In this document: positions 1 through 23,028 of the stretch, one piece after another | How positions within the stretch are numbered: position 1 is the first letter of the stretch | Layout of the letters: each line of letters begins with the position of its first letter | Assembly: GCA_052168235.1 (NCBI GenBank) | Contig: JBQLZK010000023.1 | Location: 27,739 to 91,738 of the forward strand | Source: Thainema sp. | GTDB taxonomy: Bacteria > Cyanobacteriota > Cyanobacteriia > Phormidesmidales > Phormidesmidaceae | Reading direction: 5' to 3' | DNA length: 64,000 nt | The notes under the pieces: generated by a model | Told to the model about the DNA's origin: nothing | The model's database searches: none | What the model saw: the letters and a program-made list of their open reading frames with translations, nothing else | Program-made: the position numbers and the translations under genes

Positions 1-416
1 TCGCTGAGCTGCTGGATCTGCTGGTCGGTGGTTAATTCCGCCAGGGTCAGCGTGACGCCTGGGACTTGATTGCGAAAGGTTTGCAAAATCCGGGGCAGTA
101 CGTTGTACATGGATGAACTAACGAATCCAATCACTAGCTGCCCAACTTCTCCCCGACTAGCCAACTGGCCTCGCTGAATGGCCCGATCCAACTGCCGGAA
201 AAGGGGGCGAATTTCATCTAGAAAAATCTGTCCCGCCTCGGTCAGTTGTACAACCCGCTTTGTGCGATAAAACAGAGCAAATCCTAATTCATCCTCAAGT
301 TGCCGGATTTGCTGACTCAGGGGTGGCTGCGCCATGTGGAGACGTTCGGCAGCCCGGCCAAAGTGCAGTTCTTCCGCAACGGCAATAAAGTAGCGCAAAT
401 GTCGCAGCTCAATCAA
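1..416 (-). CDS. LysR-family transcriptional regulator (5' part; runs off the window)
   Basis: Not in the ORF track. The reverse strand reads (TTG)IELRHLRYFIAVAEELHFGRAAERLHMAQPPLSQQIRQLE, a canonical LysR HTH. GGAGG lies upstream of the TTG at 416. Confidence 0.9.
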   Translation of the reverse strand, partial: MIELRHLRYFIAVAEELHFGRAAERLHMAQPPLSQQIRQLEDELGFALFYRTKRVVQLTEAGQIFLDEIRPLFRQLDRAIQRGQLASRGEVGQLVIGFVSSSMYNVLPRILQTFRNQVPGVTLTLAELTTDQQIQQLS

Positions 417-1518: not shown

Positions 1519-2835
1519 CTACCACTCCCGAAGTGCGATCGCAACTCCCTGACCCAGCGCGCTGTTCTCATCCAACTGCTGCTGAAGTTCCTGCAATCGT
1601 GTAAAAGCGGCATTGGGATTGAGCTGCTTTAAAGCTGCGATCGCATGAAAGCGCACGGCTGAATTGGTATCGGCCAGAAGCTGAATCAGTGGTTCCAGTG
1701 CTGTATCTTGGTCAAGCTGTCCTAAACCCAGAGCTGCCGCCTGCCGCACCGTATCGGAAAAAGACGGGTGAGTCATGGCGTGGGCTAGCAGTGGAGCGGC
1801 CTGCGATCGCAGGTCAGTATCCTGAATTTGACTCAGCCCCCGCACGATTTCGACCTGTACGTCGTCCTGCTCTAGCTTCAAGCCCTCAGCTAGCCCGTCT
1901 AGTGCCGTCTGCGATTCAATCCAGCTCAAGGTACGGGCCGCATTCACCCGCAGCGGCATCGGCGTATTGGGTGAATGCAGCACCTGCTGGAGAGCTTTTG
2001 CTGCCGCATCTGTGCCTAAGCGTCCCAGCGCAACCATCGCCTGACCGCACACGTCCAGGTTCAGATCCAGCAAGCAGGGCTGAATGTGAGCCACCAAGTC
2101 AATCTCGTTCAGCAAATCGCGTCGCCGACTCAGTCCAACCAGCGCTTCTCGCCGCACGGTGGATGCCGTATCCGCCAGCCCCTTCAGCAACACGGGTGTC
2201 ACCGCCGGATGGTGGAAACTGCCCAGTGCTTCAACTGTGATCGCACGAATTTGGGGCTGAGGTGAGTCCACAACCCGCAGCAGCGGCTCAATTGTTTCCA
2301 CGGTGCGGATTTGTGACAGTGCCTGTACGGCTGACAACTGCACGTCAGGATGATCCAGTAGATCCGCTAACGACTGAATGGCCGTGGAGCCGAGATTCGC
2401 TAAAGCCGAAGCAGCGATGGCCTGAAGTTCGTCATCCTCCGCTGTTTGTAGCAGTTCCGCCAGCACAAGAACGACTTCTGGCGCGTTGAAGTCACCCAGC
2501 AATCGCGCGGCAAACCAGCGCACTTCATCATCACAGTCTTCGTCTTGCACCAGGTCAATTAAAGGTGCGATCGCAGCGTTACCAAACTTCGGCACTAGTT
2601 TGGCGGCATCCCATCGGGACTGAAAATCCCCGTCAACTAAGCTTTGGATGGCTAAATCTAACGCGGTTTGGGTGTCGGCATCTTCGGCAGTCTCGCTATC
2701 GGGATTGGTGGGTTCAGGGGATGCAGACTCTCGCCCCGACCGATCGGGAGCGATGAAGCGTTCTAAATACTGATTGACCAACGACCAGTCCTGCTGCTGA
2801 GCCGCGGCTTGAGCCTGCTGCAATCCATCAACCAT
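1519..2835 (-). CDS. HEAT/PBS-lyase repeat protein, possibly NirB-like
   Basis: Repeated VR..AA.ALG / L..LL.D helices. Lies divergent from a nirA-type NtcA/NtcB promoter, like cyanobacterial nirB. The NirB identity is inference. Confidence 0.75.
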   Translation of the reverse strand: MVDGLQQAQAAAQQQDWSLVNQYLERFIAPDRSGRESASPEPTNPDSETAEDADTQTALDLAIQSLVDGDFQSRWDAAKLVPKFGNAAIAPLIDLVQDEDCDDEVRWFAARLLGDFNAPEVVLVLAELLQTAEDDELQAIAASALANLGSTAIQSLADLLDHPDVQLSAVQALSQIRTVETIEPLLRVVDSPQPQIRAITVEALGSFHHPAVTPVLLKGLADTASTVRREALVGLSRRRDLLNEIDLVAHIQPCLLDLNLDVCGQAMVALGRLGTDAAAKALQQVLHSPNTPMPLRVNAARTLSWIESQTALDGLAEGLKLEQDDVQVEIVRGLSQIQDTDLRSQAAPLLAHAMTHPSFSDTVRQAAALGLGQLDQDTALEPLIQLLADTNSAVRFHAIAALKQLNPNAAFTRLQELQQQLDENSALGQGVAIALREW

Positions 2836-3180
2836 GCAAGATTCACCTAAACCAAGAGCGCTCTTTATTTAATCCTATGACATTTGACTGGTACTTGATG
2901 TAAAAACTGCATAAAAGTAATGTTTTTAGTGCAACTAAATTGACCAGATTGCGAAATTTAATCGAAATCATATTTCAGTTTTTTGTGCAGTTGAAATTTT
3001 GATTCCATAACAACGAATTTCAGGATAATCACTAACTCAGCGAGGGTGAATACTATTTGCTAGAAGGAAATCTTGGTGGAGATACTTCTCATTTAGGATT
3101 TAGGTTTCGCAGTAGCTTGTTTGCAATGATTAGTCCAATCATTGCTTTTATTTCCCCCAAAATCGGTTGTTTGTAAAACG

Positions 3181-3212
3181 AATTATTTTGTATATAGAGC
3201 TACAAAATAATT
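3181..3212. promoter_or_regulatory. Distal NtcA box TGTA-N8-TACA (3189-3204) inside a 12-bp inverted repeat
   Basis: aattattttGTAtatagagcTACaaaataatt. Confidence 0.75.
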
Positions 3213-3228
3213 TGCGATCGCGAATTTT

Positions 3229-3264
3229 ATGCGATACCTGCATGAAGAATGTGCATTTTTTGCA
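3229..3264 (+). promoter_or_regulatory. NtcB-type LysR motifs: AT-N11-AT (3229-3243) and TGCA-N5-TGCA (3252-3264)
   Basis: ATgcgatacctgcAT and TGCAtttttTGCA, centred about -93 and -70 from an inferred TSS near 3329. Confidence 0.6.
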
Positions 3265-3280
3265 AAACCCTATTTTTTTT

Positions 3281-3322
3281 GTACTTAACTATACGAAAGG
3301 TACTGAATTACTTTTATAACCT
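3281..3322 (+). promoter_or_regulatory. Class II NtcA-activated promoter
   Basis: GTActtaactaTAC (3281-3294), exactly 22 nt, then TAACCT (TAN3T, 3317-3322). Confidence 0.8.
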
Positions 3323-3583
3323 TATTGGTGTAATAACTCCCAAGAGCTACTAAACAGATAGTGTGAGCAGTTGGCGCATTCGCCAGTTGCAGCTACTTTC
3401 AGTTGGCGGCGCAATTTGACGTGGGAATTTTACTTGAAAATCAAGAGGTAGTATGAGTGCCTTCCTGTGTTCTTAGTGTCAGCTAACACTGTATCTATTC
3501 AAGGCAAAATCAGAACTGCGAAATAGAAATAATTGCTTTTTGCAGATTTCCGTTGTTAATGATTAAGGGGAGCGGTCTCACTG

Positions 3584-4651
3584 ATGACTACAAAAACGGG
3601 GTTACAGATAGAGCTGCTAGAGCAGAGTTTCGAAAAAATTAAGCCTCAAGCGAACGATTTTGTGACTAGTTTCTACGATAATCTCTTCACGGATTATCCA
3701 GCCGCAAAGCCGCTATTTGCTCATACAAATATGTCTGAGCAAGGTAATAAATTGCTGATGTCTTTGGTGCTAGTCGTTGAAAATTTGCGTAAGCCAGAAG
3801 TACTGAGCAATACCCTAAAAGGTTTGGGCGCACGCCATGTTAAATATGGTGCGCTGCCAGAACATTATCCGTTAGTTGGCAACACGTTGCTAAAAACGTT
3901 CGAACAGTATCTGAGTGAGGATTGGACACCTGAAACCAAGCAGGCTTGGGTGGATGCCTACGGTGCCATCACCGAAATCATGCTGGATGGAGCTGATTAT
4001 TCCCAAGTTGAGGTGGATTTGGCCTCTGCGCCTGCACCTGCTGTGCCCGCAACGGATACTGAAACGGGACTGAAGGTGGAACTGCTAGAACAGAGCTTTG
4101 AGAAAGTGAAGCCGCAAGCTAATGCGTTTATTACTAGCTTCTACGACAATCTGTTCATCGACTATCCAGCCGCGAAGCCGTTGTTCGCCCATACCAACAT
4201 GGCGGAGCAGGGCAATAAGCTCTTGGCCTCTTTAGTTCTAGTTGTAGAAAACTTGCGCAAGCCGGACGTACTGAGTGGCAGCCTGAGAGGTTTGGGTGCT
4301 CGTCATGTCAAATATGGCGCACTGCCAGAGCACTACCCGCTCGTCGGCAATACGCTGCTGAAAACTTTTGAGCAGTATCTGGGTGAAGACTGGACACCTG
4401 CTACCAAGCAGGCTTGGACAGATGCCTATGGAGCGATTACCGAAATTATGCTTGATGGTGCCGATTACTCTCAGGCGGATGTCCAGCTTGATTCGGTTGA
4501 TCCTGCTTCTGTTGCAGCGGCAATGCCGACTGTTCCAGACGCATCACCAGCCGAACCAGCCAGCGAAGCTGCACCGATGAGTAGCAAAAAACTGGCTGCC
4601 TTTGGTGCCGGAGCACTGGGCATTATCGTTCTACTCATTCTCTTTTTGTAG
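3584..4651 (+). CDS. Tandem two-domain globin (flavohemoglobin/Vitreoscilla-type 3/3 fold) with a C-terminal membrane anchor
   Basis: Two near-identical repeats, each with SFYDNLF (B10 Tyr), PLF (CD1), EQG (E7 Gln), LGARHVKYG (F8 His) and EHYPLVG. Followed by an Ala/Pro linker and a hydrophobic tail (GALGIIVLLILFL). Confidence 0.9.
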   Translation: MTTKTGLQIELLEQSFEKIKPQANDFVTSFYDNLFTDYPAAKPLFAHTNMSEQGNKLLMSLVLVVENLRKPEVLSNTLKGLGARHVKYGALPEHYPLVGNTLLKTFEQYLSEDWTPETKQAWVDAYGAITEIMLDGADYSQVEVDLASAPAPAVPATDTETGLKVELLEQSFEKVKPQANAFITSFYDNLFIDYPAAKPLFAHTNMAEQGNKLLASLVLVVENLRKPDVLSGSLRGLGARHVKYGALPEHYPLVGNTLLKTFEQYLGEDWTPATKQAWTDAYGAITEIMLDGADYSQADVQLDSVDPASVAAAMPTVPDASPAEPASEAAPMSSKKLAAFGAGALGIIVLLILFL

Positions 4652-4669
4652 ACATCTTGGGGAGCTGTC

Positions 4670-5320
4670 ATGGCTGACCAGCGCCGCCGAAGATCCAGTT
4701 TGCGATCGCTACTTACCGTCAAGACCGCCATTATTTTCATCTGCATCGTGCTGATCGGCTGGGTTGGAACCGCCTTTGCGCTAGATAAAAAGACCATTTT
4801 TTTGCCAGGCGAAACGTCCGAAGGTCATTTTTTATTTGAAGCCTCCTGTTCCTCTTGCCACGAGGGATTTAAGCCCGTCAGTAACGACACCTGTATGCGC
4901 TGTCATGAAGCTGAAATGGCGGAGGATGCCCACGGCCCCAAGAAGTTTCGCGATCCGCGCTGGGCGGCTGAACTTGAAAAGTTGGAGGTACTAACTTGTA
5001 CGACCTGCCACAACGAGCATGTTCACATGTTTGGTCGGGGTGTACATCTGCAGCCCGATCTCTGTATGACCTGCCACGAGGGCATTATCAGCGGCGATCT
5101 AAAAAGTCACGACGGCTTTACCGCCGATGGCTGCTGGACAGCTGGTTGTCACAACTATCACGATCACCGCTCGATTTCCACCGGATTCATCCGCCAGAAT
5201 CTCGATCAGCCGATGATGTTGCCAACCCCGACTATGCCGGAACGCTTAGTAGAAGCTGAGTTAAAGACTGCACCAAACCCGGATCTGAGTCGTGAGTTCT
5301 TGGCGGGAGGTGCACCATGA
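4670..5320 (+). CDS. Exported multiheme c-type cytochrome (4 CXXCH + 1 CX4CH)
   Basis: CSSCH, CMRCH, CTTCH, CMTCH and CWTAGCH. Basic N-terminus and a hydrophobic stretch ending in AFA. Confidence 0.88.
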   Translation: MADQRRRRSSLRSLLTVKTAIIFICIVLIGWVGTAFALDKKTIFLPGETSEGHFLFEASCSSCHEGFKPVSNDTCMRCHEAEMAEDAHGPKKFRDPRWAAELEKLEVLTCTTCHNEHVHMFGRGVHLQPDLCMTCHEGIISGDLKSHDGFTADGCWTAGCHNYHDHRSISTGFIRQNLDQPMMLPTPTMPERLVEAELKTAPNPDLSREFLAGGAP

Positions 5321-6237
5321 TGCACTCTCCAAGAAGCTTAATATCCCGTCTGATTGCAACCCTGGCAGCGGCTCCCACCCACCTACTCACCTACCCTTCC
5401 ACGTTCACTACCTTAGCGAGAAACAGTCTAATCCTCTCCCTCGCAGTCTTAACTCTCGTCTTCAGCCCTGCCGTCCCAGCCGCTGCCGATATTACCGATG
5501 CTGAATTGGAGGAGATTACTCAGCTTTGGCAAGATAGTGCCCACGCTTTAGCCGATGTCAACTGTTCGAGCTGTCACTTGGCCGACGAAACGAACGCGCT
5601 GATTGCTCAGCCGACTCACGAGAGCTGCCAGTCGTGTCACGAGCAAGCGGTGGAAACCTTTCTGCTCGGCAAACACGGCATTCGGCTGCTGGAAGGACAG
5701 TCGCCGCTGACTCCGGCAATGGCTCGCCTTCCGATGCAGCCAGCCGCACACGGCAAGCAGATGAACTGCAACGCCTGCCACAACGTGCACTCAGTTGATA
5801 CCTACCAGGCGTCGGTTGATTCCTGTCTCACCTGCCACAACGACACCCACTCGTTGAACTACAAAAATTCCAAGCACGCCCAGCTCCTTCTGGCTGAAGG
5901 CGAGCTGCCCCGCCCGTCATCTGCATCTGTTACCTGTGCCACCTGTCACCTCCCTCGCCATGAATCGGCATCGGGCACGGTGCTCGTGAACCACAACAAC
6001 ACCTTCACGCTGCTACCCCGCGATCGCATGGTGAAAGAGGTCTGTCTGAACTGTCACGGCATGGAATATGGCTACAACAGCATCTTTGATGACGAACTGG
6101 TGGAATCCAATTTTGCCCGTCCCCCTGATCAAACCCTCCAGACTCTGGAGATGGTGCGCGCACTGGAGGAAACCCGGTCGGGCAGCGCATCAGCCTCGGA
6201 TTCTCAATCAGAATCTACTCCAGAATCAGGCTCATGA
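5317..6237 (+). CDS. Exported hexaheme c-type cytochrome
   Basis: CSSCH, CQSCH, CNACH, CLTCH, CATCH and CLNCH. Signal-like segment ending PAAA. ATGA overlap with the upstream gene. Confidence 0.88.
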   Translation: MMHSPRSLISRLIATLAAAPTHLLTYPSTFTTLARNSLILSLAVLTLVFSPAVPAAADITDAELEEITQLWQDSAHALADVNCSSCHLADETNALIAQPTHESCQSCHEQAVETFLLGKHGIRLLEGQSPLTPAMARLPMQPAAHGKQMNCNACHNVHSVDTYQASVDSCLTCHNDTHSLNYKNSKHAQLLLAEGELPRPSSASVTCATCHLPRHESASGTVLVNHNNTFTLLPRDRMVKEVCLNCHGMEYGYNSIFDDELVESNFARPPDQTLQTLEMVRALEETRSGSASASDSQSESTPESGS

Positions 6238-6344
6238 GGTGCCAAACCTCATGACCTAACTAGCGGATGCTCGCTCCCACACTCAAACACCATATTCAAA
6301 CCGATTTTAGTCCTGAGGCTAAAAACATTAGGAAGGAGAACGAC

Positions 6345-7007
6345 ATGATTGCAAATCACTATTTAAGCGGCTGGACGAGATGGCTACGCACCAAGACCGT
6401 TGCGTTTATTGCCATTATCCTCAGCGTTTGCGTTATTGCTGTGGGCTGTAGCAACAGCACCGCACAGCAGGATTCAGCGGATGGAGTTGCCCCAGAGTTG
6501 GTGGCGGATTATATTCACACCGCACTGGCGGCAGACCGCACGGCCTACACCAAGCACGTCGTCAACCGGGCTAAAACCCTAGAGGGCAAAGTCAAAGATG
6601 ATGGTGTCCTCGCAGTTGAAGCGACTGAAGGCTGGCAGCAAACCAATGGTATTCCCCTGCCTGCTCAGATGTTCCGTCTGGGTTCTGAGATCGCCTCAGA
6701 GGATGGCACCTTTACCTATAACCTGATTTCGCCTTGGAATATTAATGACAGCCAAGCTCCTAAAAATGAGTTTGAGCAAACAGCGATGCAGCAGGTTTTG
6801 GACACCGGAGAACCGTATAAGGACTATCAGGAAGTAGGTGGAATGCGCTATTTCTCGGCGCTGTATCCCGACATCGCGGTCGCGGAAGCCTGCGTCACTT
6901 GCCACAATACTCACCCGGTTCACCTCGAACGCTATCCCGATAAAGTGTTCGAGATGGGCGACGTGATGGGCGGCGTCATGATTAATATTCCTCTAGAAGG
7001 GGCTTAA
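6345..7007 (+). CDS. Tll0287/DUF3365-like monoheme c lipoprotein
   Basis: Lipobox-like IAVGC, single CVTCH, PAQMF..., and G.VMGG end. ATG 6345 follows AAGGAG (ORF track start 6267). Confidence 0.75.
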   Translation: MIANHYLSGWTRWLRTKTVAFIAIILSVCVIAVGCSNSTAQQDSADGVAPELVADYIHTALAADRTAYTKHVVNRAKTLEGKVKDDGVLAVEATEGWQQTNGIPLPAQMFRLGSEIASEDGTFTYNLISPWNINDSQAPKNEFEQTAMQQVLDTGEPYKDYQEVGGMRYFSALYPDIAVAEACVTCHNTHPVHLERYPDKVFEMGDVMGGVMINIPLEGA

Positions 7008-7011
7008 AGTT

Positions 7012-7049
7012 TTCCACAGAGGAGAAGGCTAGCCTTCTCCTCTGTGGAA
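7012..7049. repeat. Perfect intercistronic palindrome
   Basis: ttccacagaggagaaggct|agccttctcctctgtggaa. Confidence 0.8.
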
Positions 7050-7153
7050 TCACAGCAAAATTAGTGCGATCGCACCTTTTCAATCTTTCAACTTTCTGAC
7101 TTTTCAACTTTCCAACCTTTCACGACGGTGCTTCAATAGGCTTGACCCACGCC

Positions 7154-7759
7154 ATGAAACCCAGATTTGCTACGCTGATCATTTTGACGCTGGTGACGGC
7201 AGCTTTACTCCTGCCGTTTGCGTTTAGTGCAGGCTATTTAGATGTGCTGAGAAATCGTTCGGTCGATCTGCATCAGGTGTTGAGAGGTGAACTCTATAAG
7301 CAGGCTACGGGTTATTTATCGTTGACCTTCGTTGGGCTAGAAATGGCGTTAACGGTACGCAAACGCAGCCTCGGCTGGAAGTTCAAAATTCGCATTCCTG
7401 GCTCGATGCAGTTTTGGCGCAGTTTGCACATTTTTGCCGGAGTGGGCCTCGTTGCCTTAACGCTGGTGCACACGATTGGCTCGACGGGCGCTAATTTCAA
7501 CTCCGTTTTTCTCTGGGTCTTTTGGGGCGTAACGCTATCTGCATTAATCGGCGCAGTGGCTGAAACGGGCATTTTGGAATCCCCCCGCAAATACTTCGGC
7601 TTGGCATCATCCAAAGTCGGCAATCTAGCGCTCGGTACCACCAAAGGCCCCCTCATCCGAGGTTTACGCGCTTTCTGGTTATCGACGCACATTATCCTCG
7701 TCACCGTCTTCTGCCTCATGCTCGGCGTTCATATTTTTCTGGCCTACTACTACCAGTAA
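7154..7759 (+). CDS. Integral membrane protein, probable diheme b (cytochrome b/ferric-reductase-like)
   Basis: About 5 hydrophobic helices. Two His pairs 14 residues apart (LHIF...LVHT and THII...GVHI). Confidence 0.65.
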   Translation: MKPRFATLIILTLVTAALLLPFAFSAGYLDVLRNRSVDLHQVLRGELYKQATGYLSLTFVGLEMALTVRKRSLGWKFKIRIPGSMQFWRSLHIFAGVGLVALTLVHTIGSTGANFNSVFLWVFWGVTLSALIGAVAETGILESPRKYFGLASSKVGNLALGTTKGPLIRGLRAFWLSTHIILVTVFCLMLGVHIFLAYYYQ

Positions 7760-7773
7760 ACAGCAGTAACGTT

Positions 7774-8244
7774 ATGCCAAATCGACTCAACACTCGCCTA
7801 ACCTGGGCCGTCGGCTTAGTGGTTGTGTTCATTGTGGGTACTCTATTCCTGACGCGCCCTTCCGTGTCAACCAGCAGCCTGTCGCCGGTTTCGGGTCTGA
7901 TGTCGCTGCGGCAGATGGCGCAGAGTTCGATGCTGTATGACGATGCGATCGCAAATCAGAAACCGACGCTCGTCGAGTTTTATGCTGACTGGTGTACCAC
8001 CTGCCAGTCTCTTGCGCCGACGCTGCATGAGCTAGAGCAGGATTACGCTAACCAAGTTAATTTTGTCATGCTCAATATCGACGATCCGCGCTGGGCTGAG
8101 CAAGTCGATCAGTATGAGGTTACTGGAGTCCCCAAAATTGTCCTGCTCACGACCGATCAGCAGGTTTCAGACACCTTTATTGGCAGACTGCCCCGCTCTG
8201 TTCTAGCCGAAGCCATTGGGCAACTGCTGCCGTCAAATTCCTAA
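7774..8244 (+). CDS. Membrane-anchored thioredoxin-like thiol-disulfide oxidoreductase (TxlA/HCF164-like)
   Basis: N-terminal TM, VEFYADWCTTC and cis-Pro motif GVP. Confidence 0.85.
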   Translation: MPNRLNTRLTWAVGLVVVFIVGTLFLTRPSVSTSSLSPVSGLMSLRQMAQSSMLYDDAIANQKPTLVEFYADWCTTCQSLAPTLHELEQDYANQVNFVMLNIDDPRWAEQVDQYEVTGVPKIVLLTTDQQVSDTFIGRLPRSVLAEAIGQLLPSNS

Positions 8245-22581: not shown

Positions 22582-23028
22582 TAATCCTCCCAAGCAAAGC
22601 AGGCAAAACAGTCAGAAAACACTTGTATAGTCGGTTAGTATTTTATCCGGTATCTGGCCTGAAATTTTAAGTAAGTTTACAAAAATCCAATTAACTATAT
22701 CAGCTTGGCTGTCTTTCTCATATTCCGGATATGCAGGCCCGTATTGAGCAAGCTGCTTAACAGGTGAAGGCTACGTTGGGCAACATGCATTAGCCAACAA
22801 AACTCGGCTTGGTACAGCATTTCATTAGACCTGATGCACTGACACGACCCGTTTGACTAGTGTGCTTAGGCTAATGGTGGGCGAATGACAACGGCTCAAA
22901 CTATTTATGCTTGTTGAATAGAAGTCAAAGCTTGCCCACCATCTCAAAATCCTGCTATTCCCAAACAGATCAACAAGGGATCTGCACCCGGTCGTCCTTG
23001 ACAGCCTATAGCCTCTGACAGCCTTTTC

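Follow-up and report, generated by a model that had tools for sequence, protein, structure and literature searches.

The window analysed here, a stretch of 64,000 nucleotides from Thainema sp., carries on its plus strand a putative operon (3584-8244) that opens with a globin gene. This first gene (3584-4651) encodes a tandem two-domain 3/3 globin of the flavohaemoglobin-like kind with a hydrophobic C-terminal tail (PF00042 in two stretches, E = 7e-40; globin part of NF009805, E = 5e-41), and no reductase domain was found in its product. It is followed by two genes for multihaem c-type cytochromes, cytA (4670-5320; a Cytochrom_c3_2 match and several CxxCH motifs) and cytB (5317-6237), then by genes for a Tll0287-like c-haem protein (6267-7007; PF11845, E = 2e-18) and a polytopic membrane protein (7142-7759), and finally by a thioredoxin gene (7774-8244; PF00085, E = 2e-21), the product of which has a hydrophobic N-terminal segment. 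The membrane protein, which matches DUF4405 weakly (E = 0.005, below the family cut-off), is possibly a b-type cytochrome. By eye, the cytochromes, the Tll0287-like protein and the thioredoxin have N-terminal signal or anchor-like segments, and a reasonable reading of the operon is that it encodes an electron-transfer chain serving the globin. The nirA, nrt and narB genes are absent from it; a nirA-nrtP-narB cluster lies elsewhere in the genome, on contig C36. About 3 kb 5' of the operon, a LysR-type regulator gene truncated at the edge of the window (3-416) and a gene for a short-chain dehydrogenase (559-1359) are divergently oriented; the two probably form an unrelated regulator-target pair.

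Between the globin gene and its upstream neighbour, a HEAT-repeat gene on the minus strand (1519-2835), lies an intergenic region of 748 bp and 36% GC. Here the plus strand from 3229 to 3322 reads, by eye and by regular-expression search, ATGC-N7-GCAT-N7-gTGC-N7-GCAa, 15 bp, GTA-N8-TAC, N22, TAACCT. The first part of this array is a 37-bp box of the NtcB (LysR) type (3229-3265), which agrees with the NtcB template at 14 of 16 positions and is made of two palindromes 7 bp apart. The distal palindrome, ATGC-N7-GCAT (3229-3243), is perfect and centred at 3236, which corresponds to -93 if transcription starts at 3329; the proximal one, gTGC-N7-GCAa (3251-3265), is centred at 3258 (-71) and is degenerate (6 of 8 positions), a point against a nirA-type reading. 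A spacer of exactly 15 bp, AACCCTATTTTTTTT (3266-3280), separates this box from an exact NtcA box, GTA-N8-TAC, at 3281-3294 (GTA at 3281-3283, TAC at 3292-3294; centre 3287.5, predicted position -41.5), and after a further 22 nt (3295-3316) comes a -10 hexamer of the TAN3T type, TAACCT, at 3317-3322.

An earlier, sequence-only reading of this DNA had placed GTA-N8-TAC-N22-TAACCT at 3281-3322 and a second NtcA-type box, TGTA-N8-TACA, at 3189-3204, and both searches, by eye and by regular expression, found them there. It had also listed two LysR motifs, AT-N11-AT near -93 and TGCA-N5-TGCA near -70, of which the bases were right and the parsing imprecise: the former is the distal palindrome ATGC-N7-GCAT, the latter (3252-3264) is better parsed as the proximal gTGC-N7-GCAa, and together they make up a single 37-bp box. 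The distal NtcA-type box, on the plus strand, is centred at 3196.5, that is, 91 bp 5' of the centre of its proximal counterpart, and possibly serves NtcA as an auxiliary site; a regular-expression search found no -10 box at N20 to N24 from it on the minus strand. Between this distal box and the NtcB-type box, at 3214-3221, lies the octamer GCGATCGC, which we take to be the cyanobacterial HIP1 palindrome and which is also found at the locus of the closest relative (L012). Just 5' of the promoter block, at 3123-3145, the plus strand has a terminator-like hairpin followed by a T-run, which is not conserved at L012.

The array can be compared with the nirA promoter (PnirA) of Anabaena sp. PCC 7120, the scaffold used for the cryo-EM structure of the NtcA-NtcB transcription activation complex (PDB 8h3v; Han et al., bioRxiv 10.1101/2022.10.10.511513). 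In that report, the NtcB box of PnirA, ATGC-N7-GCAT-N7-ATGC-N7-GCAT, extends from -100 to -64 and the NtcA box, GTA-N8-TAC, from -48 to -35 (centre -41.5), with 15 bp between the two; from these coordinates, the palindrome centres lie 51.5 and 29.5 bp 5' of the NtcA centre. Changing the spacer by 5 bp in either direction abolishes cooperative activation by NtcB, and NtcB in the absence of NtcA has no effect at PnirA, according to the same report. Set against PnirA as described there, the globin promoter has all the same spacings (7, 7, 7, 15, 8 and 22), a TAN3T -10 box and, if +1 is 3329, the same palindrome centres (-93 and -71), whereas it differs by its degenerate proximal palindrome, its extra NtcA box 91 bp 5' and its long leader. 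The genes served also differ: PnirA drives nirA-nrtABCD-narB, whereas the promoter studied here precedes the genes for the globin, the multihaem cytochromes, the Tll0287-like protein, the membrane protein and the thioredoxin. By the definition given in Picossi et al. (2014; PMC3898017), a class II NtcA promoter combines a box near -41.5 with a TAN3T -10 box. These two features, with GTA-N8-TAC as the box, are common to the globin promoter and the canonical examples glnA, ntcB and urtA; the latter are without the upstream NtcB box that the globin promoter has.

A second comparison is provided by the genome itself. Its own nirA-nrtP-narB promoter (G000:C36, NtcA box at 22730, minus strand) reads ATGC-N7-GCAT-N7-ATGC-N7-GCgA, 15 bp, GTA-N8-TAC, N22, TAACTT. 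The globin promoter has the same score of 14/16, the same 15-bp spacer and the same N22, with TAACCT instead of TAACTT as the -10 box, but it belongs to a different operon and its non-motif bases are unrelated to those of the nirA promoter.

Both regulators are encoded in this genome. NtcA is recognised by TIGR03697 (385 bits for a cut-off of 245). NCBIfam is without an NtcB model; by PDB match, an NtcB orthologue was found on the minus strand at G000:C11:104845-105876 (L096:652-1683), with E = 4.3e-134 to chain S ('NtcB') of PDB 8h3v over 296 aligned residues. It keeps Arg34; the DNA-contacting His53 of Anabaena NtcB is Gln here, which counts against a nirA-type reading. Among the 12 LysR-type HTH genes of the genome, candidates on contigs C44 and C25 were rejected as NtcB, the PDB search having given no NtcB match for them, and the C76 protein was rejected as being of the NdhR/CcmR type. 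Upstream of ntcB, at 75 nt, lies a class II NtcA promoter of the simple kind, GTA-N8-TAC-N22-TACAGT (L096:1745-1758, minus strand); such an arrangement would give an NtcA-to-NtcB cascade. Thus, at the level of sequence, the globin promoter offers what a class II NtcA promoter calls for (exact box, TAN3T -10 box at N22, ntcA in the genome) and what a nirA-type promoter adds to it (NtcB box at 14/16, 15-bp spacer, a genomic ntcB orthologue whose DNA-binding domain is intact).

How often such an arrangement arises was first considered within the window, where there are seven GTA-N8-TAC sites and only one of them is followed by N22 and a TAN3T hexamer. The 748-bp intergenic region holds two GTA-N8-TAC cores for 0.124 expected (P of at least two = 0.0055; 2000 dinucleotide shuffles). 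We then scanned the whole genome (7.54 Mb, 205 contigs), scoring the 16 NtcB template positions placed 15 bp 5' of each GTA-N8-TAC (n = 1486, both strands counted). A score of 14/16 was reached at only two cores, those of the nirA-nrtP-narB promoter and of the globin promoter, and the next best score was 11/16; with only two of 1486 genomic cores attaining this level, a chance origin of the composite before the globin operon is very unlikely. A relaxed scan (NtcB box of at least 12/16, NtcA core of at least 5/6, spacer of 13 to 18 bp) gave 14 matches. Three of them were examined, at nirA, at the globin operon and at C100:5443; each lies between genes and has a -10 box at N22. The last of these is a composite on the minus strand (L109:1390-1496, equivalent to G000:C100:5389-5495) with an NtcB box of 15/16, a 15-bp spacer, GTA-N8-AAC, N22 and TAACGT, and it precedes cobA, the gene for uroporphyrinogen-III C-methyltransferase (NF004790, 360 bits). 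The product of this enzyme is the precursor from which sirohaem, the cofactor of NirA (ferredoxin-nitrite reductase), is made, and the position of the composite suggests that sirohaem supply may be co-regulated with nitrite reductase.

The specificity of the composite was also assessed in five other genomes (those behind L046, L062, L044, L019 and L072), using the 15-bp spacer and allowing at most 3 mismatches among the 20 specified bases. Six matches were obtained, for none with a reversed-pattern control. Three of the six are nirA promoters, one precedes the Moorena gene nrtP for a NarK-family nitrate/nitrite transporter (TIGR00886, 339 bits), one precedes a Nodosilinea gene for an NMT1_2 (NrtA/CmpA-type) binding protein, and one is the Moorena globin promoter. 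Apart from the globin operon, therefore, all composite matches in these five genomes are at nitrate-assimilation genes. In Moorena, no composite was found within 1400 bp upstream of nirA; the composites of this genome are at nrtP and at the globin operon.

We then turned to 80 loci with globin homologues (L012-L091) from named and unnamed cyanobacteria, including Acaryochloris, Moorena, Xenococcus, Hyella, Coleofasciculus, Nodosilinea, Geitlerinema, Spirulina, Symploca and Leptothoe. The order glb-cytA-cytB is found in 65 of them, the Tll0287-like gene in 62, the membrane protein gene in 59 and the thioredoxin gene in 40. The upstream HEAT-repeat gene is present in only 7 of the 80, so it is the globin gene that the promoter accompanies. 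Upstream regions were analysed for 76 loci, L013, L024, L036 and L041 being left out because their upstream DNA was too short or their first hit was partial. With lax criteria (NtcB box of at least 10/16, NtcA core of at least 5/6, spacer of 13 to 18 bp), the composite precedes 50 of the 61 loci that have both the operon and a usable upstream region, and conservation before orthologous operons, the check proposed along with the sequence-only reading, thus comes out in its favour. The remaining 11 of these 61 loci, in which no recognisable composite was found, count against a nirA-type reading. The composite is also found at 4 of the 15 loci without a detected operon, two of which (L053 and L056) end at a contig edge right after the globin gene.

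These counts are well above what shuffled sequences give. In 20 dinucleotide shuffles for each criterion, the lax composite was found in 2.0 upstream regions on average and 5 at most, for 54 of 76 observed, and the mid and strict criteria gave none, for 41 and 29 of 76 observed. An exact GTA-N8-TAC within 800 bp 5' of the globin gene is present at 54 of 76 loci (shuffle mean 6.9, maximum 13), a second such core at 18 of 76 (0.46 in shuffles), and the full pattern of NtcA box and -10 box was found on the plus strand in 31 of 76 regions and on the minus strand in 11. As a background, 271 cores located at other places in these loci were scored, and only 2 of them reach 10/16. The 24 promoters with a 15-bp spacer that were left after removal of those at least 75% identical give the consensus ATGc...GCAT-N7-ATgC-N7-tgcAT-N15-GTA-N8-TAC-N22-TAt..t, the information-content contrast of which (1.35 versus 0.38 bits) is inflated, the promoters having been chosen by their fit to the template. 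Natural NtcB-NtcA spacers range from 14 to 17 bp among the orthologues, and those of 16 to 17 bp are a further point against a nirA-type reading. The idea that spacer length co-varies between globin and nirA promoters was rejected: in Acaryochloris marina, the spacer is 17 bp at the globin promoter (L046:4560-4640) and 15 bp at nirA (L104).

Pairwise alignment with L012 shows a single well-conserved intergenic block, at about 3185-3335, which includes the distal NtcA-type box at the same 91-bp distance. Also conserved are the ribosome-binding region and a short block at 3528-3552, AAATAATTGCTTTTTGCAGATTT, which lies in the predicted leader and was not seen in more distant orthologues. By eye, no motif common to all orthologues was seen in the 110 nt 5' of the start codon.

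Transcription is predicted to start at 3327-3332 on the plus strand, and at 3329 by the -41.5 geometry. Two features of this prediction count against a nirA-type reading: the +1 base would be a T, and the 5' untranslated leader (3329-3583, plus strand) would be unusually long, at about 255 nt. An Rfam scan of 2500-4000 returned no family and one sub-threshold match, to a snoRNA at 3191-3295 (E = 0.29), 5' of the leader, which was rejected as chance. The fold of 3329-3600 is not significant (z-score 0.14), and a sigma-70 consensus scan of 2800-3620 gave no promoter-like site. The RNA evidence consists of Logan contigs from three metatranscriptome runs with small shares, from relatives that are about 90% identical, and the stretches left uncovered (3352-3445 among others) carry no evidential weight. 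One relative's contig spans 3487-5247, that is, the globin gene and cytA, and shows neither start, strand nor single transcript. Other contigs of a relative cover 2600-2857, the 5' part of the HEAT-repeat (NblB/PBS-lyase-like) gene, and stop at 2852-2857, some 20 nt past its start codon; these ends are a weak hint that this gene starts far from the NtcA boxes.

Spacings, regulators, conservation and specificity all support what the sequence-only reading had put forward, a complete nirA-type NtcA/NtcB promoter in front of an operon other than nirA. We consider it likely that the region 3229-3322 is a two-activator promoter of this kind and that it drives the globin-multihaem cytochrome operon, a conclusion drawn from sequence comparison. 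Three other explanations are considered: a promoter used by NtcA without NtcB, a promoter serving another transcript, and chance.

The promoter may respond to nitrogen limitation through NtcA only, with the upstream palindromes bound by another LysR-type regulator or by none, and hence without NtcB. This is the alternative that we take most seriously, and we nevertheless regard it as unlikely. Other LysR-type proteins are at hand in the genome, one of them encoded 3 kb upstream at the window edge; the proximal half-sites are degenerate, and NtcB has the His53 to Gln change. Moreover, three metagenome-assembled loci labelled Synechococcus (L081, L087 and L091) keep the NtcA box and the -10 box with a weak NtcB box. 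However, the box before the globin operon matches the structurally defined NtcB box in sequence, in internal spacing and in its 15-bp offset. Its distal palindrome is perfect and is kept in most orthologues. Furthermore, the arrangement recurs, among the sites examined in this genome, only at nirA and cobA, and its matches in the five other genomes are confined to nitrate-assimilation genes and one globin promoter.

Alternatively, the motifs may serve the divergent HEAT-repeat gene or an unannotated RNA, in which case a proximal promoter within 3340-3583 would drive the globin operon. The length of the predicted leader, the conservation of the 3528-3552 block in L012 and the metatranscriptome contig matching only from 3487 on would fit such a situation. 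Against it, the -10 box is on the plus strand, N22 3' of the NtcA box, and the full motif was not found on the minus strand by regular-expression search. The composite also holds its position 5' of the globin gene where the HEAT-repeat homologue is absent (73 of 80 loci), and neither a sigma-70-like promoter in 2800-3620 nor an Rfam family was detected; we therefore judge this explanation very improbable. Finally, chance co-occurrence in an intergenic region of 36% GC, where short A/T-rich motifs are commoner, can be set aside with near certainty, given the P value of 0.0055 for the two cores in this region alone, the sharing of the composite (14/16, 15-bp spacer) in the genome with nirA only, and the absence of mid and strict composites from shuffled orthologous regions.

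If the globin promoter is indeed of the nirA type, its functioning can be proposed by analogy. At high 2-oxoglutarate, when nitrogen is poor relative to carbon, an NtcA dimer would bind GTA-N8-TAC at 3281-3294, centred at -41.5, and, as a class II activator, would bring RNA polymerase to the -10 box TAACCT. An NtcB tetramer would occupy the two palindromes of the ATGC-N7-GCAT type at 3229-3265; given the 15-bp spacer, it would sit on the same face of the DNA as NtcA, reach RNA polymerase through looped DNA and raise transcription, the transcript starting near 3329. Binding of both proteins at this promoter is what we infer from the sites. In the resulting cascade, NtcA would activate ntcB, and NtcA and NtcB together would activate nirA-nrtP-narB, cobA and the globin operon. 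The globin operon would then be expected to be silent with ammonium as the nitrogen source and to reach its highest expression with nitrate or nitrite; this predicted induction is based on the published behaviour of NtcA and NtcB at nirA.

NtcB is a pathway-specific activator of nitrate assimilation, and its regulon is usually regarded as dedicated to nitrate uptake and reduction. The promoter described here points to a link, undescribed so far, between the globin operon and nitrate assimilation. The kind of promoter is already known, and the target operon appears to be new as far as the literature was searched: we found no report in which NtcA or NtcB is tied to a globin-multihaem operon of cyanobacteria, and earlier regulon compilations may list the operon. 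A broader proposal is that, in many non-heterocystous cyanobacteria, the NtcB regulon also includes a conserved membrane-bound globin-cytochrome module, which would be an unrecognised branch of nitrogen-oxide metabolism turned on together with nitrite reductase; we see the case for and against this generalisation as evenly balanced. The module comprises the globin with its hydrophobic tail, both multihaem c cytochromes with their signal-like N termini, the Tll0287-like haem protein, the thioredoxin and the membrane protein that may be a b-type cytochrome. As a hypothesis for its role, NO would be dioxygenated while nitrite is assimilated: the module may be a cytochrome-fed NO dioxygenase that returns NO leaked from nitrite reduction to nitrate, or else it may oxidise or reduce a different nitrogen intermediate.

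Among the sites examined in this genome and in the five others, the composite signature is found only at nirA, nitrate transporters, the sirohaem gene and the globin operon. It thereby provides a physiological context for a widespread operon of unknown function, namely co-expression with nitrite reductase, which can be tested. In addition, the orthologous promoters supply many natural variants of NtcA-NtcB looping, which differ in spacer length (14 to 17 bp) and include degenerate proximal sites, and on which the structural model could be tried.

Some globin loci depart from the common organisation. Stand-alone globins beside a pentapeptide-repeat gene are found at L047, L049, L052, L055 and L074, in Scytonema, Anabaena, Aerosakkonema and Tolypothrix (heterocystous or related), and these five loci have neither cytochrome genes nor the composite promoter. 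A metagenome-assembled Elainellaceae locus (L083:4780-5483) has a single globin preceded by a composite of 14/16 with a 15-bp spacer, and no cytochrome genes were found in the 5 kb 3' of it. The number of globin domains varies as well, from one to five tblastn hits per locus over L012-L091 when a single globin domain is used as the query.
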